From: Oscillospiraceae bacterium
Lineage (GTDB): Bacteria; Bacillota; Clostridia; Oscillospirales; Acutalibacteraceae
Length of the DNA: 38,350 nt
Direction of reading: 5' to 3'
NCBI GenBank assembly: GCA_902796175.1
Contig: CADBOC010000200.1
Span: 1 to 38,350 of the forward strand
The first letter of the stretch is position 1, and every line of letters starts with the position of its first letter. Of the stretch, positions 131 to 38,350 are shown piece by piece. The position numbers were made by a program, and so were the translations under genes. The notes beneath the pieces were generated by a model. It made no database searches and was not told the DNA's origin. It worked only from the letters and a program-made list of their open reading frames with translations.

Positions 131-562
131 TTATCGGCGGATAAACGCGCGAAGGCCCATAAAAACGCCCGCAAGCGCCAGCACGGCGCCGATGACGATC
201 ATGATGACGGAATTGCCCGTCACGTTCTTTTCCGCAAAGTTCTCGGGATTTGAGGACTGGTAGAGGATCTCAAGCTCATCGCCCTTTTTCATGGAGCTGC
301 TGTAGCCCGGATATTCCCGGTTCTCATACTTTTTGCCGTCGACCTCGTAATCGACGTAGACCTTGTAGTCGTAGGTATCGAAACCGTCCTCATCCGTACC
401 CGTCCATTCTCGCTCAATGCCGACGATCACAGCCTTGGTCGAAGCGTCGTACAGACGCCGCGACTGCAGCTTTTTGACGCCGGCCACGATGAGGATAACG
501 GCAAAGACCGCCATCACAATGGGAAATACGAATTTAAGGATCCTGTTCAGAATCGTACGCAT
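131..562 (-). CDS. small two-TM membrane protein, DUF3592-like
   Basis: 143-aa ORF with ATG at 562 preceded by AGGAGAGA. Hydrophobic helices at both ends (FVFPIVMAVFAVILIVAGV and VIMIVIGAVLALAGVFMGL) flank a soluble segment containing YKVYVDYEVDGKKY...GDELEILY..NP, a pattern I associate with DUF3592. Confidence 0.7.
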   Translation of the reverse strand: MRTILNRILKFVFPIVMAVFAVILIVAGVKKLQSRRLYDASTKAVIVGIEREWTGTDEDGFDTYDYKVYVDYEVDGKKYENREYPGYSSSMKKGDELEILYQSSNPENFAEKNVTGNSVIMIVIGAVLALAGVFMGLRAFIRR

Positions 563-659: not shown

Positions 660-2834
660 TCAATCGCGCGCGGCGGGACTCAACTCATACGCGCCGCCGG
701 GAACAGTCTCCAGCATGAGATCGCCCGCCGCATCCCGGCAAAGCGGCAGAGGCCGCCCTTCGTGTACCGCCTCGACCGCGCCCTGCCACGGGGGGACGAG
801 CTTCAGCGTACCGCCCTTTTCGCTGACGATACGCACGTTTTCGATCACGCCGTCCTTCAGAGAGGCGCTGACGAGGAACGCGCCGTAAACGCGCAGGTTT
901 TCGAAGGCGGCGTCCTCCGAACGGTCCCACACGGGGAACAGACGCAGCCGGCCGGCGTAATTCTGCGCCAGCATATCGTTGACGGCGGATGGCACCGCGC
1001 TGCAGCATTCGATCCCGCCGCCGCCGTAATAGACGAAGCCGTTCGGATAAGCGTGCGTTCTGAGCTGTTGCTCCATATGCCGCAGGATCTCGCCGGGATC
1101 CGCGCCGAGCCTGACCGCCGCGGTGTAGAACGTAGGGAAGGCGTTGTAATCCTCCCACCGCGCCATCACGGCGAGCGTATCCCGCAGGAGCTTCAGCGTC
1201 GCGGGATCGCTGTCGAGCCCTTCGACCCCGGCGGGAAAGGCGGACTGGATGCCGAGGCTGTTGTCGTCGCACCAGGCTCTCCCTTTTTCCGTATAGCGCA
1301 GCACGGTGCGGCCTCCCCGCTTCTGGGTGGTATAGCCGGGGAGATGCGCCAGCATATACTCCCATTTTTCGCGTCTGTCTTCGTCGCGGCCGAGCGCGCG
1401 GCTCATGTCGATCAGGGCTCTGAGCGTCATGCGGATCAGGGCGATGCTGACAACGGGGTTCAGATCCGGCTTTACGCTGCGGTTCCCCTTCCAATCCCGT
1501 TCCACGGCGTGGTCGCCGACGTCGCCCTCCTCATGGATAAAGTCGTTCTTATCCATATAGCGGCCGTTTTCAAAGACAAGGTAATCCTCCCAGAAATCGA
1601 TCACGGCAAGCAGATACGGATAAGCGCGCTCCTCGAGATACCGGCGGTCAAGCGTGGAATAATACCGCATGATAAAATTGACGGCGGCGTAGCTCGCGTT
1701 GGATTTCTGCCCCCAGTAAGGACGCTGCTCATTCGGAGAGCCGTCCGGGCGGAACATGGCTGAGACCTCATAACCGAAGGGGCCGACGCCGACCTTGGAA
1801 TACAGGCCGCGGCAGTTCAGCTGCGTTCGGGCGTTTTCCCGCGCTTTATCCATATATTCAAGCACAGGCCGGTCGTACGCGTCCGCAAGGTCGATGCGAT
1901 TGGAGCTGTATAAACCCCAGAAAGGCGCTTCGTGATTATAGTTCAGGTGATAATCTCCGCCCCAGTTCGGATGATCGGAGGTCAGAAAATTCCCGAAGAT
2001 GCCGGGCGCGAATTTATCCCTGTCGCAGCAGCAGGCAAGGATATAGTGGGAGAGGTACCAGATCCGCTCGATCTCGGGACGATCCGGCAGACACACAGAA
2101 GAGGTCTGCCAGAATCCGTTCCACCAGCGGGCGTTCGCCGTCTCGAGCGCTTCGGCCCCGGCGGGGGTCATGCCGCCTGCGCGCGAGACCGCCGCCGCCG
2201 CGGGATCGGGCGCTTCGTTCTCTGTAACGAGGGCGACGGCGAAGCAGACAGACTGCCCCGCGGCAAGAACGCCTTCGGCGCCGCCGTCCAGACCGCGAAG
2301 CGCCGAGGCGCAGCGGGAATCACGGTCCATCTCTTTCCCTTCGTAGGATTTTACGACGAGCAGCGTATCCGCCGCCGTTTCGCGGCGGACGGAGCACAGG
2401 GGATCCTCAGACAGCGCGTCGGGAGAAACGCGGTACGGCAGCTCGCCCGCTTCACAGCCGATACGCAGGATCAGGACCCCTTCGCCGCGCGGCGCGGAAA
2501 GCGAAAGCGCCCCCCTTGTTTCCCCGTTTTCGTACCGCATACCGATGCGCCCGACACGGGCGTCCTGCCAGAGCGCCGCCTCGCCGCCGCCGAACCCCGG
2601 CAGATCGACGGTAAGAAGAGCGGCGCTCTTCATACCGCCGCCCTTTTGCGCGGGGCGGTAGCACCAGAAATCATTTTTCGACAGCCAGAAGCGCGCTCCG
2701 GCGGCGGTCAGATCCATCACGGCGCCGATATCCCCGTTTCCGCAGACAGGCCCGTTCGGTACGGCCTGGTTGGGCGTATTCGGAACAAACGCCCCGAATT
2801 CCGTAAATAAGTTCCGTTTCTCTTTTTGCAGCAT
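660..2834 (-). CDS. cytoplasmic (alpha/alpha)6-type glycoside hydrolase, distantly GH95-like
   Basis: The ORF extends to 2894, but the ATG at 2834 (MLQKEK...) has a perfect SD (GGAGGCAAAAATG). No signal peptide. The segment PGIFGNFLTSDHPNWGGDYHLNYNHEAPFW parallels the GH95 block PANLQGVW...NPWNADYHTNINLQMNYW found in the ORF at 33021. Confidence 0.6.
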   Translation of the reverse strand: MLQKEKRNLFTEFGAFVPNTPNQAVPNGPVCGNGDIGAVMDLTAAGARFWLSKNDFWCYRPAQKGGGMKSAALLTVDLPGFGGGEAALWQDARVGRIGMRYENGETRGALSLSAPRGEGVLILRIGCEAGELPYRVSPDALSEDPLCSVRRETAADTLLVVKSYEGKEMDRDSRCASALRGLDGGAEGVLAAGQSVCFAVALVTENEAPDPAAAAVSRAGGMTPAGAEALETANARWWNGFWQTSSVCLPDRPEIERIWYLSHYILACCCDRDKFAPGIFGNFLTSDHPNWGGDYHLNYNHEAPFWGLYSSNRIDLADAYDRPVLEYMDKARENARTQLNCRGLYSKVGVGPFGYEVSAMFRPDGSPNEQRPYWGQKSNASYAAVNFIMRYYSTLDRRYLEERAYPYLLAVIDFWEDYLVFENGRYMDKNDFIHEEGDVGDHAVERDWKGNRSVKPDLNPVVSIALIRMTLRALIDMSRALGRDEDRREKWEYMLAHLPGYTTQKRGGRTVLRYTEKGRAWCDDNSLGIQSAFPAGVEGLDSDPATLKLLRDTLAVMARWEDYNAFPTFYTAAVRLGADPGEILRHMEQQLRTHAYPNGFVYYGGGGIECCSAVPSAVNDMLAQNYAGRLRLFPVWDRSEDAAFENLRVYGAFLVSASLKDGVIENVRIVSEKGGTLKLVPPWQGAVEAVHEGRPLPLCRDAAGDLMLETVPGGAYELSPAARD

Positions 2835-2865
2835 TTTTGCCTCCGTATTTTTTTTGTACGGCAAC

Positions 2866-2894
2866 ATAGTAACATGAAGCGCCGGAAAATGCAA
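2866..2894 (-). promoter_or_regulatory. candidate sigma-A promoter TTGCAT-17-TACTAT (with TGt extension) for the GH95-like gene
   Basis: Read on the minus strand: -35 at 2894..2889, -10 at 2871..2866, spacer 17 nt. Lies between the MATE stop (2908) and the GH start (2834). Confidence 0.45.
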
Positions 2895-11547: not shown

Positions 11548-11829
11548 TTATCCTCCTTTCATCTGTGTTCTGCCTTTTTTAACGTACCAGACCGCAAGCG
11601 CCGCAAGCAGGCCGACGGCATACCCCGCGGCGCCCCATAAAACGCCCGCTCGCAGGGGGAACGCCAACAGGCAGAGCAGCGCGCCGTAAACGGCGATCTT
11701 CGCGAACAGCGCCGCGAGCATTCTGCCCGTCTGCTGCGAGAAAGCAGCGGGGAACAGGACCGCGCTCAGAAGCGCCTGCACGACGCCCGCCGCAAGGGCG
11801 GCCGCCAGCGCGGCGATACGAATGAACAA
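11548..11829 (-). CDS. small hydrophobic protein leading the atp operon (AtpI/AtpZ-like)
   Basis: 93 aa, Ala/Leu-rich with about 3 TM segments. TTG start 9 nt after GAGGGGAGG. The call rests on its position as first gene of the operon, not on a recognised motif. Confidence 0.5.
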   Translation of the reverse strand: MFIRIAALAAALAAGVVQALLSAVLFPAAFSQQTGRMLAALFAKIAVYGALLCLLAFPLRAGVLWGAAGYAVGLLAALAVWYVKKGRTQMKGG

Positions 11830-14612: not shown

Positions 14613-15353
14613 TCAGTCCGGCAGGCCCGAAAAGGCCAGCTCCGTCGGGCGGAACCTGCCGGTTTTGGAGAGATAGCAGACGCCGTCCGGCGCAACGATC
14701 ATGTGGTCGAGCAGAATCACGCCGATCGCGCCGAGCGTCTGGGCAAGCATACGCGTACTGTCTATGTCGTCGCGCGAGGGAGCGGCGAAGCTCAGCGGAT
14801 GCGAATGGGCGATCACGATCCCATGCGCCGAATGCAGAACGGCCTCGCGGATCAGCATTTCGGTACTGGCGGAGACCGAGTGGGAACCGCCGGAATCCGT
14901 CACAAAACGTTTGATCACCCGCCCGGCGCCGTCGAGCAGCGCGAACGCGAACTGCTCAACGGAGGGATCTGTCAGCAGGGGCGAGAGCACGCTCTCGATG
15001 TCGGCCCGCGAACCAATGCGCTCTGTTGTCAGGTCCGATTCCCGTCTGCACAGCGCCGAAACATCCCGGAACAGCTTCAGGAACGCGGCCGTTTCCTCGC
15101 CGACGCCGGGAATCGAGGTCAGCGCCCGGCTCGGCGCGTTGAGCACGTTCGAAACGGAACCGTACCGGTCGATCAGCTCATGCGCGATCGGCTTTGTATC
15201 TACCCGCGGAAGCGCGTAGAACAGGATCAGCTCCAGCACCTGGTAAGGCGGCATGCCAGTAAGACCGCTCTCCATATACTGCCTGCGAACGCGCATCCGG
15301 TGCCCGGCATGGAACCGGTCGCCTTTGCGGCTCTTTGCTTTTCTGTCCTCCAT
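14613..15353 (-). CDS. radC: RadC-family JAB/JAMM domain protein
   Basis: JAMM signature HSHPLSFAAPSRDD (HxHx7Sx2D). N-terminal GHRMRVRRQY plus a helix-hairpin-helix segment. The ATG at 15353 follows AGAGGA; the track start at 15356 is a GTG one codon upstream. Confidence 0.88.
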   Translation of the reverse strand: MEDRKAKSRKGDRFHAGHRMRVRRQYMESGLTGMPPYQVLELILFYALPRVDTKPIAHELIDRYGSVSNVLNAPSRALTSIPGVGEETAAFLKLFRDVSALCRRESDLTTERIGSRADIESVLSPLLTDPSVEQFAFALLDGAGRVIKRFVTDSGGSHSVSASTEMLIREAVLHSAHGIVIAHSHPLSFAAPSRDDIDSTRMLAQTLGAIGVILLDHMIVAPDGVCYLSKTGRFRPTELAFSGLPD

Positions 15354-21633: not shown

Positions 21634-22338
21634 ATGAAACCTGTATACAAACGGATCTTACTCAAGCTCAGCGGCGAGGTGCTCGCCGGCAGCGGCGGCC
21701 ACGGCATCGACTTTGCGACCGTGGACAGCATCTGCGCCGTGATCAAAAAATGCGCCGATCTCGGCGTTGAGATCGGCATCGTGGTCGGCGGCGGCAACTT
21801 CTGGCGCGGCCGCTCCAGCGGAGAAATGGACCGCGTGCGCGCCGACAGCATGGGCATGCTCGCAACCGTTATGAACGCCCTGGCGCTGCAGGAAAGCCTC
21901 ATCGGCCTCGGCAACCCCGCCGTTGTGATGACGGCGCTCGACATGCAGCGCATCGCGAAGCCCTATCAGAAGGACGACGCCGTCGCCGCCATGAAGGCCG
22001 GCAGCGTGGTCATCTTCGGCTGCGGCACGGGCAGCCCCTTCTTCAGCACCGATTCGGGCGCGGCGCTGCGCGCGAACGAGATCGGCGCGGATATCTTCTT
22101 CAAGGCCACGAACGTGGACGGCGTTTACGACAAAGACCCGAACCGTTACCCCGACGCGGTCAGATACGAAACGCTCACCTACGACGAGATCCTTGAAAAG
22201 CACCTCGGCGTGATGGACAACACCGCCGCGGCGCTCGCCCAGAACGGGCGGCTTCCCGTACTCGTATTCAACCTGAACGATCCCGAGAACATCCTCAGGG
22301 CCGTTCTGGGTGAAAAGATCGGCACGATCGTAAAATAA
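21634..22338 (+). CDS. pyrH: UMP kinase
   Basis: 234 aa. YKRILLKLSGE..., VVGGGNFWRG, FGCGTGSPFFSTDSGAALRA. Confidence 0.96.
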   Translation: MKPVYKRILLKLSGEVLAGSGGHGIDFATVDSICAVIKKCADLGVEIGIVVGGGNFWRGRSSGEMDRVRADSMGMLATVMNALALQESLIGLGNPAVVMTALDMQRIAKPYQKDDAVAAMKAGSVVIFGCGTGSPFFSTDSGAALRANEIGADIFFKATNVDGVYDKDPNRYPDAVRYETLTYDEILEKHLGVMDNTAAALAQNGRLPVLVFNLNDPENILRAVLGEKIGTIVK

Positions 22339-22366: not shown

Positions 22367-22921
22367 ATGGAAACCGTATTTGCCCATACCAGAGAAAAAA
22401 TGTCGAAGACCATCGCCGCGCTCAGAAGCGAATTCAACTCCATCCGCGCCGGCCGCGCGAACGCCGCGGTGCTCGATCCCATCCGCGTGGATTACTGGGG
22501 CGTTCCCACCCCCATCAACCAGATGGCGGCCGTTTCCGTTCCGGAAGCGCGCATCCTCATGATCCAGCCCTGGGACAAATCGGCCCTGAAGCTGATCGAA
22601 AAAGCGATACAGGCCTCCGATCTCGGCATCAACCCCCAGAACGACGGCAGCGTGCTGCGCCTCACCTTCCCGCCCCTGACGGAGGAGCGCAGAAAGCAGC
22701 TCGTGAAGGAAGTAAAGGCCACGGCGGAAGGCTCCAAGGTCGCGATCCGCAACATCCGCAGAGAGGCGATCGAGAAGCTCAAGGCCATGAAGAAGGCCTC
22801 AGAGATCACGGAGGACGACCTGAAGGACGGCGAAGCGGAGATCCAGAAGATCACCGACGAATTCATCAAGCAGGTAGACGCAGTCTCCGCCGCCAAGGAA
22901 GAAGAGATCCTCGCGATCTGA
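22367..22921 (+). CDS. frr: ribosome recycling factor
   Basis: 184 aa. LRSEFNSIRAGRANAAVLDPIRVDYWG, NPQNDGSVLRLTFPPLTEERRK. Confidence 0.96.
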   Translation: METVFAHTREKMSKTIAALRSEFNSIRAGRANAAVLDPIRVDYWGVPTPINQMAAVSVPEARILMIQPWDKSALKLIEKAIQASDLGINPQNDGSVLRLTFPPLTEERRKQLVKEVKATAEGSKVAIRNIRREAIEKLKAMKKASEITEDDLKDGEAEIQKITDEFIKQVDAVSAAKEEEILAI

Positions 22922-22927
22922 CGGCGT

Positions 22928-23653
22928 ATGACAGACAAACCGTTTGAAAGCCTGCCCCGGCACGTTGCCGTGATCATGGACGGCAACGGCCGCTGGGCAA
23001 AAAAGCGCGGCCTGCCGCGGTCTGAGGGCCATATCGAGGGCGCGAAGACCTTCCGGCGGATCGGCGAATACGCCGGCAACCTCGGCATCCGCCACCTGAC
23101 CTTCTACGCCTTTTCGACCGAGAACTGGTCAAGACCCGAAGCGGAGGTCAAAGCGATCATGTCGCTGTTCGGCGATTATCTCGACGAAGCGCTCAGAAGA
23201 CTGGACGAGGACAAAGAAAAAGGCATAAGGCTGCGTTTTCTCGGCGACAAAAGCCGCATCGATCCCGCGCTCGTCAGCCTGATGGATACGGTAGAGGAAG
23301 CGACCCGTGAGATGACGAAGGTCAACCTCAACATCGCCGTGAACTACGGCGGCAGACAGGAGATCCTGCAGGCGGCGCAGTCGATCGCCAGAGACGTAAA
23401 GAGCGGGGCGCTCTCCCCCGAAGAGATCACGGAACAGACGATCGAAGAAAGGCTGTATACCGCCGGTCAGCCGCCGGTGGATCTGCTCATCCGCCCCAGC
23501 GGCGAACAGCGGCTCTCCAATTTTCTGCTGTGGCAGTGCGCCTACGCCGAATTCTGGTATTCGGACGTGCTGTGGCCTGATTTTACAGAGGCAGATCTCG
23601 ACCGGGCGCTCGGGGCCTACGCCGCGCGCAGCCGCCGCTTCGGCGGGCTGTGA
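22928..23653 (+). CDS. uppS: isoprenyl transferase / undecaprenyl diphosphate synthase
   Basis: 241 aa. HVAVIMDGNGRWA, FSTENWSRP, RPSGEQRLSNFLLWQ, C-terminal RSRRFGG. Confidence 0.95.
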   Translation: MTDKPFESLPRHVAVIMDGNGRWAKKRGLPRSEGHIEGAKTFRRIGEYAGNLGIRHLTFYAFSTENWSRPEAEVKAIMSLFGDYLDEALRRLDEDKEKGIRLRFLGDKSRIDPALVSLMDTVEEATREMTKVNLNIAVNYGGRQEILQAAQSIARDVKSGALSPEEITEQTIEERLYTAGQPPVDLLIRPSGEQRLSNFLLWQCAYAEFWYSDVLWPDFTEADLDRALGAYAARSRRFGGL

Positions 23654-23684
23654 TACAAAAAAAACCGATCATACGTTTGACGCA

Positions 23685-23757: not shown

Positions 23758-24612
23758 ATGAAAAACCGATTGCTGACTGCCCTCGTAGGCGTTTCGATCG
23801 CCGTGGGATGGATGTTTACGGTCTATACGCCCGCCTTTTCCGCCATCATGGCGATCGTAGCAGGCATTGCCGTCTATGAAATGCTGAAGGTATTCGAGGT
23901 AAAAAATATCCCCTTCTTTGTGCTGTGCGAGCTTACGGGCGTCTGCACGATGCTTTGGGCGGATTATAAAAACAAGCTGGATCTGCCGCTCTTCCCGGTA
24001 CTCACGCTGATCGTACTGCTGAGCCTGGTGTTCATGGTGCTCGACTATAAACGCCTGCGCTTTGAGCAGGTAGCGTGTTCGCTGTTTTCCGCCGTGCTGA
24101 TCCCGGCGGCGCTCTCGTGCGTGGTGCTGCTGCGCGACGTATACATCGCATTTCCGGCTGTATTCACAAAGCCGGACGGGATCTTTCTGATCCTGCTCGC
24201 CTTTTTCTGCTCCTGGATCAGCGACGGCTGCGCGCTGTTCGCGGGCAGAGCCTTCGGAAAGCATAAGCTTGCCCCCGAGATCAGCCCGAAAAAGACCGTA
24301 GAGGGCGCTATAGGCGGCATTCTCGGCAACCTGCTGTTCTGCGCGGGGCTGTGGGCGGTATTTCAGTATAAATTCAATCTTTCGGCGTATATTGGTCTCG
24401 GATGGCTGATACCGGTCTCGGCAGGGCTTTCCGTTATAAGCATATTCGGCGACCTTGCCGCCTCAACGATCAAGCGGCACAGGGGGATCAAAGACTTCGG
24501 CAATCTGCTGCCCGGCCACGGCGGCGTGATGGACCGTTTCGACAGCTCCGTCTTTGTGTTCGCCGCGGAATACGCCATTGTATCGCTGATGGGAAAATGG
24601 ATCGGAGCGTAA
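23758..24612 (+). CDS. cdsA: phosphatidate cytidylyltransferase (CDP-diglyceride synthase)
   Basis: C-terminal signature STIKRHRGIKDFGNLLPGHGGVMDRFDS. MKNRLLTALVGVSIAV at 23758 looks like the canonical N-terminus. In-frame alternative starts at 23650 (GTG) and 23725 cannot be excluded. Confidence 0.85.
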   Translation: MKNRLLTALVGVSIAVGWMFTVYTPAFSAIMAIVAGIAVYEMLKVFEVKNIPFFVLCELTGVCTMLWADYKNKLDLPLFPVLTLIVLLSLVFMVLDYKRLRFEQVACSLFSAVLIPAALSCVVLLRDVYIAFPAVFTKPDGIFLILLAFFCSWISDGCALFAGRAFGKHKLAPEISPKKTVEGAIGGILGNLLFCAGLWAVFQYKFNLSAYIGLGWLIPVSAGLSVISIFGDLAASTIKRHRGIKDFGNLLPGHGGVMDRFDSSVFVFAAEYAIVSLMGKWIGA

Positions 24613-24628: not shown

Positions 24629-25777
24629 ATGAACAAAAAAAACATCACGGTGCTCGGCTCCACGGGCTCCATCGGCGTGCAGTCTCTGGACGTCGCCGAA
24701 AAAGCGGGCTACGGCGTTACGGCGCTCACCGCGAATACGGACGTAAAAAAGCTGGAAGAGCAGATCCGGCGCTTTTTGCCGCGTTTTGCCGCGCTGCGGG
24801 ATGAGAACGCGGCGGCGGACCTCGCCGTTCGCGTCGCCGACCTCCCCACAAAGATCCTTGCGGGGGAAGAGGGCGTATGCGAATGCGCGGCGGCAGAGGG
24901 CGCCGACGTCGCCATCGACGCCATCGTGGGGCTTGCGGGCCTTCGTCCCGCGCTCGCTGCCGTCGGCGCCAGGAAGGATCTTGCCCTCGCGAACAAGGAA
25001 GCGCTGGTTGCGGGCGGACCCATCCTGCTCAACGCCGTAAAAACAAACGGCGTAAAGCTTCTGCCGGTAGACAGCGAGCATTCCGCGATCTTTCAGTGTC
25101 TGCAGGGCGCGCCGACAAACCGCGCGGTAAAAAAACTGATCCTGACCGCCTCGGGCGGTCCGTTTTTCGGTAAAACGCGCGAAGATCTGCAGCACGTAAC
25201 GGCTGCCGACGCGCTGCGGCACCCCACCTGAAGCATGGGCGCGAAGATCACGATCGATTCCGCCTCTCTGTTCAACAAGGGACTGGAGCTGATCGAAGCG
25301 CATTTTCTGTTCGGCGTCGCGCCCGAAAAGATCGAGATCGTGATACAGCGCGAAAGCGTGATCCACTCGATGGTGGAATACGACGACAATTCCGTGATCG
25401 CGCAGCTCGGCGTTTCGGATATGCGCATCCCGATCCAGTACGCGCTGACGTACCCGGAGCGCTTCCCCTCTCCGGCGGCGGAACCGGATTTTCCGGCCAT
25501 CGGCGCGCTTACCTTTTTCAAACCGGATACCGATACCTTCGACTGCCTGAACATCTGCCGCGAGGCGATCGGAAAAGGCGGCCTGTTCCCGGCGGCGGTC
25601 AATTCCGCAAACGAAGAGGCGAACCGCCTGTTCCGGGAGGGAAGGATCGGCTTTTTGGACCTGCCCGTACGCATCCGGCGGGCCTTCGGCGTTACGCCTG
25701 ATAAAACGGAGTTTACGCTCGAAGACATCTACGAAACAGACCGCGCCGCAAGAGCGGCGGTCCTCGCGGGACTCTGA
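24629..25777 (+). pseudogene. dxr: 1-deoxy-D-xylulose 5-phosphate reductoisomerase interrupted by one in-frame TGA (25229..25231); formally a pseudogene, possibly expressed by read-through
   Basis: ORFs 24629..25231 and 25235..25777 share one frame. The N-terminal part has GSTGSIG and LANKEALV. The junction reads [27 protein letters not shown], versus [23 protein letters not shown] in E. coli Dxr. Confidence 0.9.
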
Positions 25778-25812
25778 TCCCGTTATAATCTGAAACAAAA
25801 AGCGGTGATTTT

Positions 25813-26886
25813 TTGAACGGTATCTCATTGGCTGTTTCAGCCGGCGCCGTCTGGGGCAAGGTATGGCCGGTCCTCTTCGCCATCCTGTTTTTCGGCGTGA
25901 TCATAGCCCTGCACGAATTCGGGCATTTTATCACGGCAAAGCTCTTCGGCATGCGCGTGAACGAGTATTCCATCGGCATGGGGCCGGCGATCTTCAAACG
26001 CAAAAAAGGCGAAACGCAGTATTCCCTGCGCGCGCTGCCCGTCGGCGGCTTTGTCTCTCTTGAGGGAGAGGATGAGGTCTCGGACGATCCGCGCGCCTTC
26101 GGAAATCAGAAAGCGTGGAAGCGCTTTATCGTGATCGCGGCGGGCGCCACGCTCAACATCATTCTGGGGCTGCTGCTCATCGCGGTGATGATCGGCATAG
26201 ACGGAAAAACCGACACCACCGTGGTCGCAGGCGTTTCAGAGACGATGACGCAGAGCGAAAACGGCGTAAGGGAGGGCGACCGCGTCATAAAGATCAACGG
26301 CAGCCGCGTATACGCCGCCAGGGATCTGTACTACCAGCTTTACCGCAGCGAGAGCGACCGCTTCGATATCACGGTGCGCCGCGGCGGCGAACGGCTGGAG
26401 CTGACCGACGTGAAGGTGACCTATTCCGCCGAAGAGGGCTTTTGCGACTTTGTGGTCGGCGAACGGAAGGCGTCTTTCTTACGGGTGCTGCCCGACGCCG
26501 TCACCCAAACCGTTTCGATGACAAAGCTCGTCGGCCTGAGTCTGCTCGACATGGTGCGGGGCAAATACGGGCTCAAGGATCTTTCGGGCCCGGTGGGCAC
26601 CATCGGCATCGTGGCCGAAACGACCGGGGACGCGGTAAAGCAGGCGGATTACGGCTCCGTCATCTTTATTCTGGCGTTCATCACCGTGAACATCGGCGTT
26701 GTGAATCTGCTGCCCCTGCCGGCGCTTGACGGCGGCAGACTGTTCTTTATCCTCATTGAGATCATCGCGCGCAGACCTGTACCGAAGAAATTTGAGGCGG
26801 TCGTACACGCGGCGGGCCTCGTGCTGCTGCTGGCGCTGATGGCGCTGATCACCTTCAACGACGTATTCAACATGATCCGCAGATAG
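25813..26886 (+). CDS. rseP: RIP site-2 metalloprotease (M50 family)
   Basis: HEFGH zinc motif in TM1, a central PDZ-like segment, and NLLPLPALDGG near the C-terminus. TTG start at 25813 as given in the track; the exact start is uncertain. Confidence 0.9.
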   Translation: MNGISLAVSAGAVWGKVWPVLFAILFFGVIIALHEFGHFITAKLFGMRVNEYSIGMGPAIFKRKKGETQYSLRALPVGGFVSLEGEDEVSDDPRAFGNQKAWKRFIVIAAGATLNIILGLLLIAVMIGIDGKTDTTVVAGVSETMTQSENGVREGDRVIKINGSRVYAARDLYYQLYRSESDRFDITVRRGGERLELTDVKVTYSAEEGFCDFVVGERKASFLRVLPDAVTQTVSMTKLVGLSLLDMVRGKYGLKDLSGPVGTIGIVAETTGDAVKQADYGSVIFILAFITVNIGVVNLLPLPALDGGRLFFILIEIIARRPVPKKFEAVVHAAGLVLLLALMALITFNDVFNMIRR

Positions 26887-26906
26887 GTCTGCAAAGGAGA
26901 AAAAAC

Positions 26907-27950
26907 ATGGCAAGCAGAAAACAGGTGCGCTGCGGCCCGGTCACGATCGGCGGCGGCGCGCCGGTAACGGTACAGAGCATGCTCAATACCCCGGCTGAGA
27001 ATACGGCCGCATGCGTCAGGCAGGGGCTGGAGCTGCAGAACGCCGGCTGCGAGATCCTGCGCGCGACTGTGCCGAACGCGGCGGCTGTCAGAACGGTGGC
27101 CGCGCTCAAAGAGGCGCTTTCGATCCCGATCGTCGCGGACATTCACTTCGACTATAAAATGGCGCTGGAGGCGGCGGCCGCGGGGGCGGACAAGATCCGC
27201 ATCAACCCCGGCAACATCGGCGGCGACGACCGCGTGAAAGCCGTGGCGAACGCCTGTCGCGAACGCGGCGTCCCGATCCGCGTCGGCGTGAACTCAGGCT
27301 CTGTGGAAAAACACATTCTGCGCAAATACGGCGCGCCTACGCCGGAGGCGCTGGTCGAAAGCGCGCTGTATCACGTTTCTCTTCTCAATAAATTTGATTT
27401 TGACGACGTCGTCGTCTCCCTGAAATCCTCCGACGTCAAAAGCACCGTCGCGGCTTACCGCCTGATGGCCGAACGTACCGACTACCCGCTGCACGTCGGC
27501 GTAACGGAAGCCGGCACCGCGCGCATGGGCCTGATAAAATCAGCCGCCGGCATCGGCGCGCTGCTCGCCGACGGCATAGGCGACACGATCCGTGTTTCTC
27601 TGACCGCGCCGCCGGTCGAGGAGATCTACGCGGGGGCCGATATCCTGAAGGCGCTGGGACTCGGCAAACCCGGCGTGAACCTGGTATCCTGCCCCACCTG
27701 CGGGCGCACAAAGATCGACCTGATCGGCCTTGCCTCCCGGGTGGAGGCGGCGCTCAGGGGCTGCAGCAAACCGATCACGGTCGCCGTGATGGGCTGTATC
27801 GTCAACGGCCCCGGCGAAGCGAGAGAAGCCGATATCGGCATTGCCGGCGGCGACGGCGAAGGACTGCTGTTCAAAAAAGGCGAGATCGTGCGCAAGGTAA
27901 AAGAGGAGGAGCTCTTCTCCGCGCTGATGGAAGAGATCGCATCCATGTAA
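26907..27950 (+). CDS. ispG: 4-hydroxy-3-methylbut-2-en-1-yl diphosphate synthase
   Basis: 347 aa. VQSMLNT, IRINPGNIG, Fe-S ligand motifs VSCPTCGRT and GCIVNGPGE. SD AAAGGAGAA. Confidence 0.96.
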   Translation: MASRKQVRCGPVTIGGGAPVTVQSMLNTPAENTAACVRQGLELQNAGCEILRATVPNAAAVRTVAALKEALSIPIVADIHFDYKMALEAAAAGADKIRINPGNIGGDDRVKAVANACRERGVPIRVGVNSGSVEKHILRKYGAPTPEALVESALYHVSLLNKFDFDDVVVSLKSSDVKSTVAAYRLMAERTDYPLHVGVTEAGTARMGLIKSAAGIGALLADGIGDTIRVSLTAPPVEEIYAGADILKALGLGKPGVNLVSCPTCGRTKIDLIGLASRVEAALRGCSKPITVAVMGCIVNGPGEAREADIGIAGGDGEGLLFKKGEIVRKVKEEELFSALMEEIASM

Positions 27951-27957
27951 ATCATTC

Positions 27958-27984
27958 GCGGGGGCGGACCGTCCCCGCTTTTTT
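27958..27984 (+). terminator. rho-independent terminator after ispG
   Basis: GCGGGGGCG-GAC-CGTCCCCGC (9 bp including one G.U) followed by TTTTTT, 8 nt after the ispG stop. Confidence 0.8.
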
Positions 27985-28030
27985 GTCGCGATCTTTCCCG
28001 ATTTTTCCGCTTCCATCCGGCGCGGATCTG

Positions 28031-28039
28031 TGCTATACT
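28031..28039 (+). promoter_or_regulatory. candidate extended -10 promoter (TGcTATACT) for the GH25 gene
   Basis: TGCTATACT lies 59 nt upstream of the ATG at 28098. The -35 (TTCCAT) is weak. Confidence 0.4.
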
Positions 28040-28097
28040 GAAAAAAACGGATTCCGCCGAACCAGCCGCGGCGGAACGCGAACCGGGAGGAAATAAC

Positions 28098-30068
28098 ATG
28101 ACTCAGAAAAAACGTCCGCATGCAGCCGCCGTTTTCACGGCTTTTCTGCTGCTGTTTGCGATGCTGTTTCACAACGGAACGATCCCGGTCGCGGGAGCGG
28201 CTGAATTTCAGACAGGCGAATACACGCTGAACGCGAGCATGAACTTCCGCGTTTCTCCCGATATGAACGCCGAAAAGATCGGCGTGATCCCTTCGGGAAC
28301 GGCGGTACAGATCCTGGAGGTACGGGGGGACTGGGGCCGCCTTGTCTATGAGGACGCGGAGGGGTGGATCAGCCTGTTGTACAGCACCCCCCATCTGCCG
28401 CGCACAGACGTAACCTCGCCGGATCTGTGGCTCGTCGCCGATTTTTCGCAGTGGCACGAGCCTGAAAGCATCAGCTGGAGCGGTCTGAGAGCGGAGGGCG
28501 TTCAGGGCGTGATCCTGCGCGCGGGCGGCCGCGGCTACGGCAGCGCAAAACAGCTCTACGCGGACAGCTGCTTCGTATCGCACGCGCAGAGCGCCGCCGC
28601 GGCTGGTCTGCATATCGGCGTCTACTTCTTCAGCTACGCCCTGAACGCGGCCGAGGCGGTCGAAGAGGCCGATTTCACGGTCTCCATGATCCGCGCGGCC
28701 GGCATTCAGCCGGACATGCCCGTTTTTATCGACATCGAAGACGCGTCGGGCGACCGGCAGCATGAATACGCCGGCATCGACGTGTGCTCCGCCGTCTGCG
28801 ACGCGTTCTGCGAACGCATACGCGAAGCGGGGTATTACCCCGGCGTTTACTCCGGCAAATGGTTTGCGGAGACCCTGCTCTACCCGCAGGTGTTCAGCGG
28901 CCGCGCATCGTGGATCGCGCACTACGGGGTAGAGCGCTGCGGGTATGCTTACGCCGAGCCGGATATGTGGCAGTTCACGGAACGGGGAGAGCTTTACAGC
29001 GTAAGAGGGTACGTGGACCTCAGCTACTGCTACCGCGATTTTCCGGCGATGATCGCTTCCGGCGAGCCCGTTCCCGCTGAACCGGATAAACCGCCGATCG
29101 ACCCGCCGGAGGAGCCGGATCCCATCCCCGGCGCGGACCCGCACTATACCCCGCCCGATACATACGACGCGGATCTGGATTTCGGCGCGCACGTGCCGAC
29201 CGCGCGCTGGACGACCGTAAAGAACCCCACCTGCAAACGGGAGGGCGTTACGCAGCGGCGCTGCGCCGACTGCGGTTTGATCCTGCAGCACGCGGCGATC
29301 CCGCGTATCGCGCACACGCCGGGCGAACCGCTGGCGCTGCCCGCCGATACGGTGCTCACGCCCGGTGATCAGATCCCGCAGGCGCTTCTGCGCAGCCTTT
29401 CGCCCGCCGGCGACGACTCGACGGCCGCGGTGATCACGGTATGCACGCTCTGCAAAGAGGTGCTCACCTACGCCGTCGGCGACGGCAGCTGCGCCCACAC
29501 GGAAACCGAGACGGATACGATCGCCCCGACCTGCGTCAGAGAAGGCCTGCGCCGTACCGTATGCACGGCGTGTATGGAGGTGGTCAGCGCGGAGATCACG
29601 GAACAGGTCGCCCACACAAAGGGCGTCGCCGGTTATTTCGTGCCGGATTGCGCCCAGGGCGGCACGGAACGTTTCGTCTGCCCGGTATGCGATACCGTTC
29701 TGCTCGAAACCTATCTTCCGCCGGCGGAACACCGGTATTCGGATCCCGAGACCGTTTCCCCTGCTACGCTCTCTGAGGGAGCGCTTTTACGGCGGACCTG
29801 CGCCGTATGCGGCTCGACGGCCGATTCATACGGAGAACCGCTGCTGCCGGGGGACGCGGATGGGGACGGTCTGCTTTCGGCGGCGGACGCCCGTCTGCTG
29901 CTCCGCTTTGCAGTCGGGCTTGAAACGATGCTCCCCGTACCCGAAACCGCCGACCCGGACGGCAACGGCACGGTAGACGCCGCCGACGCCCGTTTGGCGC
30001 TGCGCCTTGCCGTGGGGCTCGAAGACCCGGAGGAGATCCGCACGGCCCTGCTCGCGGGAACGGAATAA
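28098..30068 (+). CDS. secreted multidomain muramidase: signal peptide, SH3b, GH25 lysozyme, Pro-rich linker, four Cys-rich repeats, dockerin
   Basis: Signal peptide ending VAGAAE. SH3b-like FRVSPDMNAEKIGVIPSGTAVQILEVRGDWGRLVY. GH25 motifs VADFSQWH, GVQGVILRAGG, GVYFFSY and PVFIDIED. The C-terminus carries two dockerin Ca-binding segments. Confidence 0.9.
   Translation: MTQKKRPHAAAVFTAFLLLFAMLFHNGTIPVAGAAEFQTGEYTLNASMNFRVSPDMNAEKIGVIPSGTAVQILEVRGDWGRLVYEDAEGWISLLYSTPHLPRTDVTSPDLWLVADFSQWHEPESISWSGLRAEGVQGVILRAGGRGYGSAKQLYADSCFVSHAQSAAAAGLHIGVYFFSYALNAAEAVEEADFTVSMIRAAGIQPDMPVFIDIEDASGDRQHEYAGIDVCSAVCDAFCERIREAGYYPGVYSGKWFAETLLYPQVFSGRASWIAHYGVERCGYAYAEPDMWQFTERGELYSVRGYVDLSYCYRDFPAMIASGEPVPAEPDKPPIDPPEEPDPIPGADPHYTPPDTYDADLDFGAHVPTARWTTVKNPTCKREGVTQRRCADCGLILQHAAIPRIAHTPGEPLALPADTVLTPGDQIPQALLRSLSPAGDDSTAAVITVCTLCKEVLTYAVGDGSCAHTETETDTIAPTCVREGLRRTVCTACMEVVSAEITEQVAHTKGVAGYFVPDCAQGGTERFVCPVCDTVLLETYLPPAEHRYSDPETVSPATLSEGALLRRTCAVCGSTADSYGEPLLPGDADGDGLLSAADARLLLRFAVGLETMLPVPETADPDGNGTVDAADARLALRLAVGLEDPEEIRTALLAGTE
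29190..29837 (+). repeat. four tandem Cys-rich protein repeats, P-[TD]-C-x9-C-x2-C...H type, putative zinc-ribbon modules
   Basis: NPTCKREGVTQRRCADCGLILQHAAIPRIAH; APTCVREGLRRTVCTACMEVVSAEITEQVAH; VPDCAQGGTERFVCPVCDTVLLETYLPPAEH; and a degenerate fourth, LSEGALLRRTCAVCG. Confidence 0.6.
29847..30032 (+). other. type I-like dockerin module
   Basis: Duplicated segments DADGDGLLSAADARLLLRFAVGLE and DPDGNGTVDAADARLALRLAVGLE (DxDxDGxxxxxD loop followed by a helix). Confidence 0.8.
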
Positions 30069-30072
30069 CGCG

Positions 30073-30112
30073 ATAACTGCCGGACGGCCCGCAGGGGCTG
30101 TCCGGCAGTTAT
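30073..30112. terminator. bidirectional hairpin terminator between the convergent dockerin genes
   Basis: ATAACTGCCGGAC ... GTCCGGCAGTTAT (13-bp perfect arms, extendable inward) lies between the stops at 30068 and 30126. U-tracts are poor on both sides. Confidence 0.65.
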
Positions 30113-30125
30113 GATAGTCTATCGG

Positions 30126-30992
30126 TCAGAGGACTTCCAGATCCACGGCGGCGCGCAGGATCAGGCGCGCGTCGGCGGAGGAAAGCGCGCCGTCGCCGTC
30201 CACGTCAAGCAGGCGGTAAACCTCGGAACGCGCGTCAAAGGAATCGAGCCCGACGGCCGCGCGAAGCGCAAGACGCGCGTCGCCGGAATCCACCTCTCCG
30301 CTCTGATCGGCGTCCCCGGGCAGATCGGCTGAGGACGCTTTGACCGTGCCGGCGGTCAGGTCCGGCTGCAGTATGAAGCAGATCTTTCTGCCCTGGCGCG
30401 TCAGACGCCCGGCGTTGAACTGCCTCCAAGTAAAACGGTTCACGGCGATCAGGCCGTTGTAATCGGCGTTGCCCTCAAGGATCGTAATGCCTTCTTCGTC
30501 GTAGGTCAGAACGATGAACGAATGGCCGTCGGATCCGTTAAAACTGTAATCGGAATTGCCGGTCGTGCGCACGTAAGCGCCGCAGCCGACGCCGGCCTTC
30601 AGCATCGACTGATAAGAGAGCGCGTCCCGCGCCCTGAGCGCCACACGGCTCGCCCGGAACGCACCGGAAGCGTCCCCCGGGATCTCGGAAAACAGATAAT
30701 AATATACGGCCTGCGCATAGGCGAGACACTGATACCCCCAAACGGGATACTCGCCGCCCCAGGTATAAACGCGGTCCGGGTCGATGGAATCGCCGACGGC
30801 GAAGGTCTCGTCCGTATTGCGGAACAGCACGGCTTTGCCCTGCAGAACGTTTGTCAGCTTAGCGGCCAGCGCTTTGTTGTCGGTATAGGCGCCGCCCCTC
30901 AGCGACGCGGCGGAGGCAGGCAGCCGAAAAAAGAACCCGATCACGATCATGACCGATAAGAAAACGGAAACACCCTGTTTTCTGTTGTACAC
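30126..30992 (-). CDS. secreted papain-fold (NlpC/P60- or CHAP-like) amidase/peptidase with C-terminal dockerin
   Basis: GTG start after AAAGGAG. Signal peptide ending LPASAAS. Candidate nucleophile in VWGYQCLAYAQAVYYY and His in SDGHSFIVLTYD. Dockerin segments DADQSGEVDSGDARLALRAAVGLD and DVDGDGALSSADARLILRAAVDLE map to nt 30129..30320. Confidence 0.75.
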   Translation of the reverse strand: MYNRKQGVSVFLSVMIVIGFFFRLPASAASLRGGAYTDNKALAAKLTNVLQGKAVLFRNTDETFAVGDSIDPDRVYTWGGEYPVWGYQCLAYAQAVYYYLFSEIPGDASGAFRASRVALRARDALSYQSMLKAGVGCGAYVRTTGNSDYSFNGSDGHSFIVLTYDEEGITILEGNADYNGLIAVNRFTWRQFNAGRLTRQGRKICFILQPDLTAGTVKASSADLPGDADQSGEVDSGDARLALRAAVGLDSFDARSEVYRLLDVDGDGALSSADARLILRAAVDLEVL

Positions 30993-32416: not shown

Positions 32417-32851
32417 TCAGAGGTATTCGCGCATTTCGGCGGTGAGCTTCGCCTGCAGGCCGATGAGCTTTTTGCAGACGTCGCGCGCTTCCTTTTCCGC
32501 GTCCGGATAATCGTTCAGAAAACCGTTCAGGGATTTAATGCCCATGTTGCAGCCGTCGGTGATCATCTCGGCGGCCTTCGCGTCCGAATCGTCCGCCGTC
32601 AGCGCAACGCCGGTCTTGATCCAGCTCATCGCCTGCACAACGGGGTTCGGGCTTTTGCCCTCGTCGCCGAACCGCGCAAGCTCCTTCTGCACGGAGCCGG
32701 CAAGCTCCGTGAACGCGGTCTTGTTCTCCGCCAGCGTTTTGCGGAGGGTCTCCCCTTTTACGTGTTTGAGCACGTCCTCAATGCCCTGCACGCCCATCTT
32801 GGCGCCGGAATCGCATTCCCGCAGCAAACGGACCGTATCGTCTTTCTGCAT
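32417..32851 (-). CDS. small cytoplasmic all-helical protein of unknown function (possibly a four-helix bundle)
   Basis: 144-aa ORF with coding-like composition and no TM segment or signal peptide. I do not recognise a definite family, and the SD is weak. Confidence 0.55.
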   Translation of the reverse strand: MQKDDTVRLLRECDSGAKMGVQGIEDVLKHVKGETLRKTLAENKTAFTELAGSVQKELARFGDEGKSPNPVVQAMSWIKTGVALTADDSDAKAAEMITDGCNMGIKSLNGFLNDYPDAEKEARDVCKKLIGLQAKLTAEMREYL

Positions 32852-33020: not shown

Positions 33021-35267
33021 TTGATACACATCCTGCATCTGAACAAACCCGCTTCACAGTGGAACGACGCCTCCCCCGTCGGCAACGGCAGTCTCGGCGG
33101 CATGCTCTGGGGCCGGCCCGGCGCGGAGCGCGTCACGCTCAGCGAAGAGACGATCTGGGCCGGCCTGCCGATCACGGACGCGGACGGAGATTTCAGGAAA
33201 AAGATCGACGCGCTGAGAAAGAAATTTCTCGACGGCGATCTCGCCGGCATAGACGACGCGGCCGAAACGCTGCTGGACGGCAGCTTTCGCCGCGTGCGCT
33301 CGGCGGAATACGCAGGGGACCTGACGATCCGCACGCCGCTTACGGGAAAAGCGACAGACTACAGCCGCGATCTTGACCTGACGGACGGCGTTTTTGAGAC
33401 GGCTTACGAAATGGACGGTACCGGGGTCCGTGAACGGGCCTTCTGCTCCCACGCGCATAAGGTGCTCGCCCTGCGCTTCGATTTTTCAGAGCCCTGCTCG
33501 CTTACGGTCTCTTACGACCGCCCGAACGTCACGGCGCTCAAAGCGCACGGCGACCGTCTGACGGCCGAAGCGCGGACCGCCTGCGGGAACCACGCGTTTT
33601 CGGTAGGCGTGAAGGTCGAAACGGACGGGGCCGTTACGGCCGACGGCAAAGAACTTGCGGTCAGAGACGCGCGGTTCGCCGTTCTTTATATCGCCGTCGC
33701 GACAGAGTTTAATTTCGGCGCGGATCACGCCGCGGTGCTCGACGATATTCTGACGGAGGCGGAGGACTTCGACGGGATGCTCGCGGCGCACCGCGCGGAT
33801 TTTTCGGAGCTATCGAAGCAAAGCGACGTCACGCTCTTAAGCCCGCCCGAGGTGGAAGCTCTGCCCGCCGACGAACGGCTCGATCGCCTGAAAAACGACC
33901 CGGCAGCCGGGGACCCGGGACTCGCCGCGCTCTACTTCGCCTTCGGCAAATATCTGCTGATCTCCTCCTCCAGAGAGGATACGCTGCCCGCGAACCTGCA
34001 GGGCGTATGGGTCGAAAAGCTCGAAAACCCGTGGAACGCCGATTACCACACCAACATCAACCTGCAGATGAACTACTGGCCCGCCGAGGTCGCGGGGCTC
34101 GGCGCCTGTCACGAAGCGCTCTTCCGCTTTATGAACGAGGTGCTGCTGCCCTCCGGCGAAAAGACGGCGAAGGAGCTCTACGGCTGCCGGGGCACGGTCT
34201 CGCATCATCTGAGCGATCTGTACGGCTACACCGGCCCCGCGGACGGCGTATGGGGGCTGTGGCCCCACGGCGCGGGATGGCTCTCGACCCATATGTGGGA
34301 GCATTACCGCTTCACGCAGGACTTATCCTTTTTGGAGGATACCGCCTACGGCTTTATGAAGGCCGCCGCGCGCTTTTACCTCGATTATCTCTTTGAGGGT
34401 CCGGACGGCAGGCTGCATACAGGGCCCTCCGCCTCGCCCGAGAACCGCTACTATCTGCCGACGCCAAAGGGAAAACAGGAGACGTACATCTGCTTCTCCC
34501 CCACGATGGATATCGAGATCGTGGGCGCGGTGCTCCGGAACTTCATCTCCGCCGCCGAGCTGCTGGAAACGGACGAAGCCATGCGGCGGGAGGCGGCCGA
34601 TGCGCTCGGGCGGCTGCCCGCCCTGACCGTCGGGCCGGACGGAAGGCTCAACGAATGGCTGGAGCCCTATGAGGAGCCCGAACCCGGCCACCGGCATATC
34701 TCTCACGCCTTCGCGCTTTACCCGGACGACGCGATCGGCAGGGATACCCCGGCGCTCTTCGACGCCGTATCGAAGACCCTCGAAAAACGGCTCGCCAACG
34801 GCGGCGGTCACACGGGCTGGTCCCGCGCGTGGCTCATTTGCCTGTACGCCCGTCTCGGGAACGGAGAGGAGGCTGCAAAGCACCTCAGGGCGCTCTTTAC
34901 GAAATCCACGCTGCCGAACCTCTTCGACACCCACCCGCCGTTCCAGATCGACGGGAACTTCGGCGGCGCGGCCGGGATCGCCGAGATGCTGCTGCAGAGC
35001 AAAGAGAACGAGATCGCGCTGCTGCCCGCCATACCCGCCGGCTATACCGGCAGCTTTACGGGACTCAGAGCGCGGGGCGGTCTTTCGGTGGACGCAGCGT
35101 TCGAGAACGGCAGACTTGCGTCCTTTGCCGTTGCCTCGGTGACCGGCGGCGACGTAACCGTGCGGCTGCCGGCGGGCACGGCGGTACGGGGACGGCGGCT
35201 GAAGGACGGCAGCCTTACGGTGCGCCTTACGGGCGGCAAACCCGCCGCGTTTATCTGTGAAACATAA
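33021..35267 (+). CDS. glycoside hydrolase family 95 (alpha-L-fucosidase type), cytoplasmic
   Basis: TTG start after GGAAGGAGGG. N-terminus WNDASPVGNGSLGGMLWGRPGAERVTLSEETIWAG. Catalytic region PANLQGVWVEKLENPWNADYHTNINLQMNYWPAE. No signal peptide. Confidence 0.9.
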   Translation: MIHILHLNKPASQWNDASPVGNGSLGGMLWGRPGAERVTLSEETIWAGLPITDADGDFRKKIDALRKKFLDGDLAGIDDAAETLLDGSFRRVRSAEYAGDLTIRTPLTGKATDYSRDLDLTDGVFETAYEMDGTGVRERAFCSHAHKVLALRFDFSEPCSLTVSYDRPNVTALKAHGDRLTAEARTACGNHAFSVGVKVETDGAVTADGKELAVRDARFAVLYIAVATEFNFGADHAAVLDDILTEAEDFDGMLAAHRADFSELSKQSDVTLLSPPEVEALPADERLDRLKNDPAAGDPGLAALYFAFGKYLLISSSREDTLPANLQGVWVEKLENPWNADYHTNINLQMNYWPAEVAGLGACHEALFRFMNEVLLPSGEKTAKELYGCRGTVSHHLSDLYGYTGPADGVWGLWPHGAGWLSTHMWEHYRFTQDLSFLEDTAYGFMKAAARFYLDYLFEGPDGRLHTGPSASPENRYYLPTPKGKQETYICFSPTMDIEIVGAVLRNFISAAELLETDEAMRREAADALGRLPALTVGPDGRLNEWLEPYEEPEPGHRHISHAFALYPDDAIGRDTPALFDAVSKTLEKRLANGGGHTGWSRAWLICLYARLGNGEEAAKHLRALFTKSTLPNLFDTHPPFQIDGNFGGAAGIAEMLLQSKENEIALLPAIPAGYTGSFTGLRARGGLSVDAAFENGRLASFAVASVTGGDVTVRLPAGTAVRGRRLKDGSLTVRLTGGKPAAFICET

Positions 35268-37090: not shown

Positions 37091-38350
37091 ATGAGAAAAT
37101 ACAAAAAATACGCCGGCGCGGATCAGCATACCCCCGGCGTGCCGCAGTATTTTTCGTGGATCAACAACACGAATGAGGGCTCCACCGAGGCGCAGACCCT
37201 GACGAACCTCGCCTTTTTCGGCTGGATGCGCGATACCTACGGCATGCAGCTGCGCATCTACGCGTGGGACGCGGGCAATTTTGACGGCGCGGGCGAGGGC
37301 TACGGGAACTTAAACGGCGAGAAATTCCGCTCGCAGTACCCGAACGGCTACGCCCCCATCGTAGAAAAGGCGGCTGAGATCGGCGCAAGGCTCGGTCTTT
37401 GGGGTTCGCCGGACGGCTACGGCGACGACCCCGAAACGGAAAAGACACGGTACGACTTTTTTGTACACCTGTGCCGCGACTATCACTTCGCGCTCTTCAA
37501 ATTGGACGGCGTCTGCGGACGGCTCCGTCCCGAAAAGGCGGCGCTCTTCGCACGCATGCTGACCGAATGCCGAAAGTACAGTCCCGATCTGATCGTGCTC
37601 AACCACCGGCTGGATCTCTATGAGGCGGAAAAGCACGTTACGACCTTTCTTTGGAACGGCGACGAGACCTATACGGACGTTTTCTCCCACAACCGGGTCA
37701 CAGCCCCGCACCCGCGCGCCTATCTGTTCTCGCGCGGGCATGTAGATAAACTGAACCGTCTGGCGGAGGACCACGGCGTATGTCTGTCTTCCTCACTCGA
37801 CCGCTTTGAGGACGATCTGATCTATCAGGCGTTCTCGCGCAGCCTGATCCTTTCGCCCGAGATCTACGGCAACCCGTGGTTCTTAAAAGACGGGGAGCTG
37901 CCCCGGCTCGCCCGCGTCTATACGCTGCAGGCGGCGAACGCCGCGATCCTGCCGAACGGCATGCGGCTGCCGGAGCGCTTCGGCCCGAACGCCGTATCGC
38001 GCGGCGACGGCGGCAAACGCATGCTCTGCACCGGCAACGATACGTGGGAGGAAAAAACGCTCGCCCTGACGCTCGACGAGAGCGTAGGGCTCATCCCCGC
38101 GGAACGGATCCGCGTGATCCTGCGCCACCCGTGGGAGGAGTATATCGGCGACTTTGCCTACGGCGAGACCGTCGCGCTGCCGCTGCCGCCCTTCCGCGCC
38201 GTGCTGGCAGAGCTGTCGGTCCCCGACCGGGCGGACCCGGTCCTTACGAACTGCCGCTATCATTTCTTAACGCCGGATGAGACCGGCGCGCCGAAAACCG
38301 TTCGCATTCTTGAAACGGCGGGCGGCAAAATCGAGCTGCTGCGAGGGAAC
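37091..38350 (+). CDS. unknown protein, 5' partial view (420 codons, continues past the window end); possibly a TIM-barrel glycosidase-like enzyme
   Basis: Not in the ORF track because there is no stop in the window. My manual translation from the ATG at 37091 (3 nt after the ThuA stop) is open to 38350: MRKYKKYAGADQHTPGVPQYFSWINNTNEG...FFVHLCRDYHFALFKLDGV... The FKLDG segment loosely recalls the nucleophile region of clan GH-D enzymes. Confidence 0.7.
   Translation, partial: MRKYKKYAGADQHTPGVPQYFSWINNTNEGSTEAQTLTNLAFFGWMRDTYGMQLRIYAWDAGNFDGAGEGYGNLNGEKFRSQYPNGYAPIVEKAAEIGARLGLWGSPDGYGDDPETEKTRYDFFVHLCRDYHFALFKLDGVCGRLRPEKAALFARMLTECRKYSPDLIVLNHRLDLYEAEKHVTTFLWNGDETYTDVFSHNRVTAPHPRAYLFSRGHVDKLNRLAEDHGVCLSSSLDRFEDDLIYQAFSRSLILSPEIYGNPWFLKDGELPRLARVYTLQAANAAILPNGMRLPERFGPNAVSRGDGGKRMLCTGNDTWEEKTLALTLDESVGLIPAERIRVILRHPWEEYIGDFAYGETVALPLPPFRAVLAELSVPDRADPVLTNCRYHFLTPDETGAPKTVRILETAGGKIELLRGN

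Follow-up and report, generated by a model that had tools for sequence, protein, structure and literature searches.

The dxr gene of the window, the 38,350-nt stretch of Oscillospiraceae DNA analyzed here, is interrupted by an in-frame TGA at the codon for its lid-loop tryptophan, and the comparisons presented below make it probable (roughly 0.6) that this stop is a one-off, non-programmed G-to-A lesion at position 25231 without maintained function, a reading that covers both an artefact and a transient variant. The gene would then be an ordinary dxr, with TGG (Trp) as the normal allele of the species, and the TGA would represent either a consensus or assembly miscall, possibly through the uptake of a minority variant, or a very recent nonsense allele under no selection. 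Such a lesion would not imply any special decoding machinery, the working enzyme in the cell population most likely derives from the TGG allele, and the change itself would be non-adaptive.

Within this explanation, an artefact seems about as likely as a real allele. The comparisons narrow the three-way choice left by the first-pass annotation, whose third option, a base-call or assembly error, or else a minority variant in the consensus, is at least as probable as a real allele. On the one hand, the change is private and falls in a normally essential gene whose conservation is perfect in all other respects, which favors an artefact or a minority variant, and many internal-stop "pseudogenes" are known to arise during assembly (PMC11017572). 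On the other hand, the window consensus is otherwise clean, so that a real allele stays plausible. The dxr stop matches an already known category, the sporadic internal-stop "pseudogenes" of draft and metagenome assemblies (Cooley and Wright, 2024; PMC11017572), with which it shares a single stop in a gene that is otherwise perfect, and the presence of this stop in one assembly only and its absence from a same-species genome that is nearly identical. It differs from the assembly-derived members of this class in that the window shows no other suspicious changes where it was cross-checked, an artefact being here a possible rather than an established origin.

Identity of the interrupted gene

Translated in one frame, the whole of the dxr interval yields a 382-codon Dxr in which the TGA at 25229..25231 is the sole internal stop, and the gene ends on a TGA of its own (25775..25777). 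According to Pfam profiles, the N-terminal open reading frame (200 aa) covers PF02670 and positions 1-56 of PF08436, and the C-terminal one (180 aa) covers positions 59-84 of PF08436 and PF13288, so that the break falls inside one domain, the catalytic one, and only the Trp column is removed. Both the single-frame translation and the Pfam coverage of the two halves bear out the view taken in the first-pass annotation, made from the sequence alone, that the two same-frame open reading frames form one full-length Dxr. When the Trp is restored, the protein retrieves 8000 homologs with lengths of 381-393 aa, the top one being 80% identical (668 bits, 99% coverage); those with a named source come from metagenome-assembled genomes of Oscillospiraceae, Ruminococcaceae and Clostridia. 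It also matches solved Dxr structures with E values from 1e-95 to 1e-56, including those of E. coli (PDB 1K5H, 1ONP, 1Q0Q). Three domains in canonical order and full-length similarity hence place the product in the Dxr/IspC family, and the window shares with canonical members such as E. coli Dxr both the three-domain architecture and the HP-x-W-x-MG lid loop. The frame of the window, however, is broken at the lid Trp codon, whereas an uninterrupted frame encoding this residue is found in a second contig of the same species (L004, described below). In E. coli Dxr the equivalent residue is Trp212, whose indole packs on the backbone of the substrate or of fosmidomycin (PMC9782300; PMC7248951). 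The features of dxr and of its neighbors are collected in Table 1.

Table 1. Coordinates of dxr, of the changes within it and of the adjoining genes in the window.
Feature	Position	Strand	Basis or remark
dxr (Dxr/IspC)	24629..25777	+	Pfam order PF02670, PF08436, PF13288; homologs; solved structures
In-frame TGA at the single Trp codon of dxr (E. coli Trp212 equivalent)	25229..25231	+	25231 is A in the window, G in L004
ATG for the Met of the conserved W-x-M-G motif, 3 nt 3' of the stop, opening the 180-aa downstream ORF	25235..25237	+	Read from the sequence
Second dxr mismatch to L004	25269	+	Window CTG (Leu), L004 CGG (Arg)
pyrH (UMP kinase), intact	21634..22338	+	PF00696 on the identical product in L001/L002
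frr (ribosome recycling factor), intact, TGA terminator	22367..22921	+	
uppS, intact, TGA terminator	22928..23653	+	
cdsA, intact	23758..24612	+	PF01148, profile positions 1-263 of 264
rseP-type M50 site-2 protease, intact	25813..26886	+	PF02163, profile positions 2-221 of 221
ispG (gcpE), MEP pathway, intact	26907..27950	+	PF04551, PF26540; identical protein in two other assemblies

The tryptophan codon in the same species and in relatives

Besides ERZ28613745, the species occurs in ERZ27280503, ERZ12289766 and ERZ919319. An exact-product look-up of the window IspG led to L004, a scaffold of 5197 bp in an ENA metagenome assembly of independent origin (ERZ28613745), which aligns without gaps to positions 24696..29892 of the window with 4 mismatches in 5197 bp (99.92% identity). 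In L004 position 25231 is a G, the codon is TGG and Dxr is uninterrupted; the comparison with a sister strain that the first-pass annotation had suggested hence returns the Trp codon in a near-identical contig from another sample. L004 is the only same-species contig that spans 25229..25231. Exact-product look-ups of both Dxr halves disclosed no further contig encoding either, those of frr, uppS and pyrH recovered only short same-species contigs that end before the stop site, and those of cdsA, rseP and the GH25, M20 peptidase and APH-like genes gave no match.

The second mismatch between the two dxr sequences affects codon 214 (position 574 of L004), at which the family has only Leu or Met and an Arg is never seen. 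Since the Leu-to-Arg change of L004, 38 bp away from the stop, is incompatible with the family, radical single-base differences do occur in such assemblies. The last two mismatches, a Thr/Ile difference and a synonymous one, lie in rseP, and in both L004 agrees with L005, a contig from a third sample. Where the window can be set against at least two overlapping same-species contigs (7005 nt), it shows 4 private differences, two of them synonymous, one Thr/Ile and one an intergenic A8/A7 change in homopolymer length; since all of these are benign, the window consensus is not generally noisy. The homopolymer in question lies between uppS and cdsA (23655..23663), where the window has one A more than L001 and L086.

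Codon 214 stands just before the phosphate-binding N-K-G motif, and each of the two same-species dxr sequences has a radical change of its own in this part of the lid, the two lying within 13 codons, a pattern that with n = 2 is not significant. A link between the TGA of the window and the Leu214Arg change of L004, for instance through selection on the lid driven by an inhibitor, was considered and set aside, as it involves two sequences only and the clustering is not significant; by our own rough estimate, the chance of finding some pair among 4 differences no more than 38 bp apart in 5.2 kb is about 0.09.

Beyond the species, a scan of a genome collection provided relatives of which the best among the matches listed are 62-73% identical, none of them from the same species. 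The lid Trp is coded by TGG in all 80 of the species-level relatives listed (78/78 of those aligned), and of the 120 closest protein homologs 119 have Trp in this place and the remaining one Cys. Together with the G of L004, these counts uphold the description of the stop in the first-pass annotation as a single TGG-to-TGA transition on the lid-loop Trp. The one homolog with Cys (P0093, from a single ENA contig) reads HPTCDMG at this otherwise invariant position, a change that is one base away from TGG.

The truncated product itself is equally isolated. When a collection of 5.8 billion proteins was queried with the N-terminal half, the 200-aa product (P0121) was the sole member of its cluster and came from one contig of 38,350 bp, the window itself, which is hence a whole contig; since the next match is 73% identical, no other assembly in that collection holds a truncated product from the same species. 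Furthermore, the JGI metagenomes contain no exact match to the local 38-mer, in which an R at 25231 admitted both alleles. With TGG in L004 and the TGA allele found nowhere else in these searches, the stop is private to the window contig and neither conserved nor maintained.

Alternative interpretations

Most of the remaining probability belongs to readings in which the allele is real. The principal alternative is a real nonsense allele that has become fixed in the strain, which would survive because tRNA-Trp (anticodon CCA) decodes UGA leakily as a near-cognate codon. The yield of exact wild-type Dxr would then be a few percent of the normal one and would suffice for the MEP pathway. Taken as a whole, this scenario is rather unlikely. 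It would have most ribosomes stop at the UGA and release a 200-aa fragment that should be inactive, as it is missing the lid Trp, the entire C-terminal domain and half of the catalytic one, while a small fraction of ribosomes would decode the UGA with tRNA-Trp and produce the exact wild-type enzyme. Leaky read-through of the dxr UGA is physically possible, for UGA is read as Trp at low frequency in E. coli and Salmonella and, in wild-type B. subtilis, the read-through of catA86-TGA amounts to about 6% (PMC7918605), E. coli mass spectrometry finds Trp almost always in the place of TGA (PMC11126739), and Salmonella genes with in-frame stops still yield low levels of protein (PMC9122581). The window resembles these leaky-UGA systems and "pseudo-pseudogenes" in that the commonest read-through product, Trp, is the native residue at this site, as Trp is aligned with the stop in the homologs; the earlier remark that read-through would restore the wild-type residue is thus sound. 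The intact state of the rest of dxr and of the operon, including ispG, and the otherwise clean consensus of the window also speak for this alternative.

The window nevertheless departs from those systems. An in-frame stop is considered putatively functional when an orthologous stop is present in at least two independent genomes (PMC7918605), and in this lineage both L004 and the 80 listed relatives have TGG, which makes read-through or selection hypothetical for the window. Moreover, the internal stop has the +4 context TGAA, with which four genes of the window genuinely terminate, and the 72 nt 3' of the UGA (25229..25300) fold no better than shuffled sequences (z = 0.35), so that no stimulatory structure is apparent downstream. 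The proposal in the first-pass annotation of a down-tuned, selected allele has accordingly lost its comparative support, as the same species has TGG in another sample, the truncated product occurs in no other assembly and no listed relative carries a TGA. That a real allele leaves an essential MEP enzyme to be fed solely by near-cognate UGA-to-Trp read-through, at a lowered dosage of Dxr, is unlikely. If the allele were real and dominant, it would offer a natural example of an essential gene living on the leakiness of UGA towards Trp, a "self-correcting" nonsense allele in an uncultured gut Oscillospirales strain, of no more than moderate interest, since model bacteria already provide documented cases of the mechanism.

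Less probable still is a real and very recent dead pseudogene, with isoprenoid precursors supplied by a second dxr, a DRL-type enzyme, the mevalonate pathway or cross-feeding. In its favor, the stop splits the catalytic domain and takes away the substrate-packing Trp of the lid (PMC9782300), and sporadic single TGAs on the same codon are seen in two unrelated metagenome contigs (L087 and L089, described below). The gene shows no sign of decay, however. Of the 61 columns with a conservation of at least 97% across 78 species, the Dxr of the window keeps 60, the Trp being the sole deviation; neither a frameshift nor a second stop is present in the window dxr. The pseudogenization envisaged in the first-pass annotation therefore finds no support in the state of the gene, in which a single lesion stands where a decaying pseudogene would have several and would have lost conserved residues. 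The adjoining ispG belongs to the same pathway and is intact, with identical copies in three assemblies; the dxr of the closest strain (L004) is intact, and no alternative pathway is encoded within the window. As the other conserved columns are kept and no frameshift is present, the lesion is either very recent or not real, and if real it would correspond to a very recent inactivation. Relaxed selection on dxr over a longer period was also contemplated, given that the window Dxr deviates at 7 more columns conserved in the 120 closest homologs, and was rejected: these 7 columns vary across the wider family, with for example a Gln at position 240 in 9 of 78 species, and none of the family-wide conserved columns is lost, the Trp stop apart.

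Programmed recoding, by insertion of selenocysteine or through a full or partial UGA-to-Trp change of the genetic code, is effectively refuted within the window. The idea can draw on the one in-frame UGA aligned with Trp, on the existence of an intermediate UGA-to-Trp stage in Ca. Providencia siddallii (PMC10540940) and on that of a code-4 Dxr with TGA at this same Trp (L088, below). As in Ca. Providencia siddallii and code 4, an in-frame UGA stands at a Trp position while UGA terminates other genes (PMC10540940), but those genomes are reduced and AT-rich and have many such UGAs (PMC10540940), unlike the window, in which 1 of 108 Trp-position codons is TGA, the GC content is 60.6% and the sister strain has TGG. 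TGA is not rare as a terminator here but the commonest one, ending 17 genes, 4 of them as TGAA, and the 29 genes contain 107 internal TGG against 1 TGA, so that neither a table 4 nor a partial UGA=Trp code, which would place many TGAs at aligned Trp positions, is in use. The earlier inference that there is no global UGA=Trp code, drawn from the TGA terminators of frr, uppS and dxr, is thereby extended to the whole window. As for selenocysteine, the absence of any fold better than shuffled sequences 3' of the UGA means that there is no SECIS-like element, no Rfam family reaches its gathering threshold within the window, and the homologs carry Trp at the site (119/120 among the closest proteins, 78/78 among the aligned species), Cys being limited to the single case of P0093.

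It is likewise extremely improbable that the gene now specifies two polypeptides, with termination at the UGA and re-initiation at the AUG at 25235 giving a two-piece enzyme split at a flexible loop, for although the ATG lies 3 nt past the stop and the break falls in the surface lid loop (PMC9782300), the resulting enzyme would be missing the invariant Trp and the next residue, no Shine-Dalgarno-like sequence is present upstream of the ATG (CACCCCACCTGAAGC), no dxr split in this way is found among the listed relatives and the gene of the sister strain is continuous.

As it stands, then, the preferred reading of a one-off lesion gives the stop little importance, as a single private base difference of a kind common in draft assemblies. 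For annotation purposes, the locus is best reported as a dxr with an internal stop and a possible sequence error, and not as two genes or as a case of recoding.

Position of the stop and parallel cases

The first-pass annotation had stressed that the stop falls exactly on the invariant Trp; the placement is correct, but needs no special explanation. There is one Trp in the restored Dxr. A single base of dxr can be changed in 3438 ways, 81 of which create a stop, and only 10 of these are transitions, 8 affecting CAG codons and 2 the TGG in question. With 2 of the 10 transition nonsense changes on the sole Trp codon, a random G-to-A or C-to-T nonsense event lands there 1 time in 5. The position on Trp is hence unremarkable, being in large part dictated by the genetic code.

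Among 241 million JGI records, a degenerate search for the lid motif of Dxr with the Trp codon replaced by TGA returned 3 contigs. In one of them (L088; JGI Ga0123356_10289690, 1305-1366; 33% GC), Dxr has three in-frame TGAs, all in Trp-like places (HPT*KMG, EAH*LFG and VYD*TAIK, with the asterisk for the TGA), a pattern that indicates a code-4 (UGA=Trp) organism having the MEP pathway. The other two, L087 (R07__coassemble_253, 430-491, minus strand; 44% GC) and L089 (LULF01001878.1, 5158-5219, plus strand; 71% GC), both show just one TGA, on the lid Trp codon of an otherwise normal dxr. L087 and L089 are sporadic parallels in unrelated lineages, and the 3 contigs form no clade-coherent pattern, hits on this codon being scattered across the phylogeny.

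A further candidate for a stop on the same Trp codon was rejected. This Clostridia dxr (P0175/L090; ENA ERZ28614729 scaffold_1616, 3580-3615) reads HPN*EKEKKITID over an A-rich run (TGAGAAAAAGAAAAAAAAATT), with the W-x-M-G-x-K motif replaced by *EKEKK, which is a garbled A-rich tract instead of a point mutation and probably an assembly or sequencing error.

Genomic context

The interrupted gene lies within the usual pyrH-frr-uppS-cdsA-dxr-rseP-ispG cluster. As had been stated for the operon, including ispG, at the outset, every other gene in it is full length, and the same applies to every other gene of the window. The remaining window genes fit Pfam profiles over essentially their full length, and include an F-type ATP synthase operon, ligA, rluD-like, LysR, MFS and GH95 genes. 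No tRNA gene was found within the 38,350 nt, and prfB is absent from the window. Open reading frames without a Pfam match but with coding-like GC3 are located at 14701..15219 (+), 11548..11829 (-), 32417..32851 (-) and 37091..38350 (+). The first of these, with second codon positions unusually rich in GC (0.65), is possibly not a genuine gene.

Although they come from different samples, L004 and L005 both stop exactly at position 29892 of the window, which adjoins, on the upstream side, a set of dockerin-like repeats (…DADGDG…SAADARL.LR.AVGLE…). These repeats lie at the C-termini of two convergent genes, one encoding a 656-aa GH25+SH3 protein and the other a 288-aa protein without a Pfam match, and at the nucleotide level they constitute a 76-nt inverted repeat (29952..30027 and 30131..30206) that is 71% complementary. 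Between the two convergent genes, a near-perfect 18-nt hairpin (30073..30112) looks like a bidirectional terminator. Lastly, the window carries two GH95-type glycoside hydrolase genes, at 660..2894 (-) and 33021..35267 (+). The latter fits the full catalytic profile, whereas the former fits only positions 55-289 of 408, with a much weaker score, which suggests a divergent paralog.
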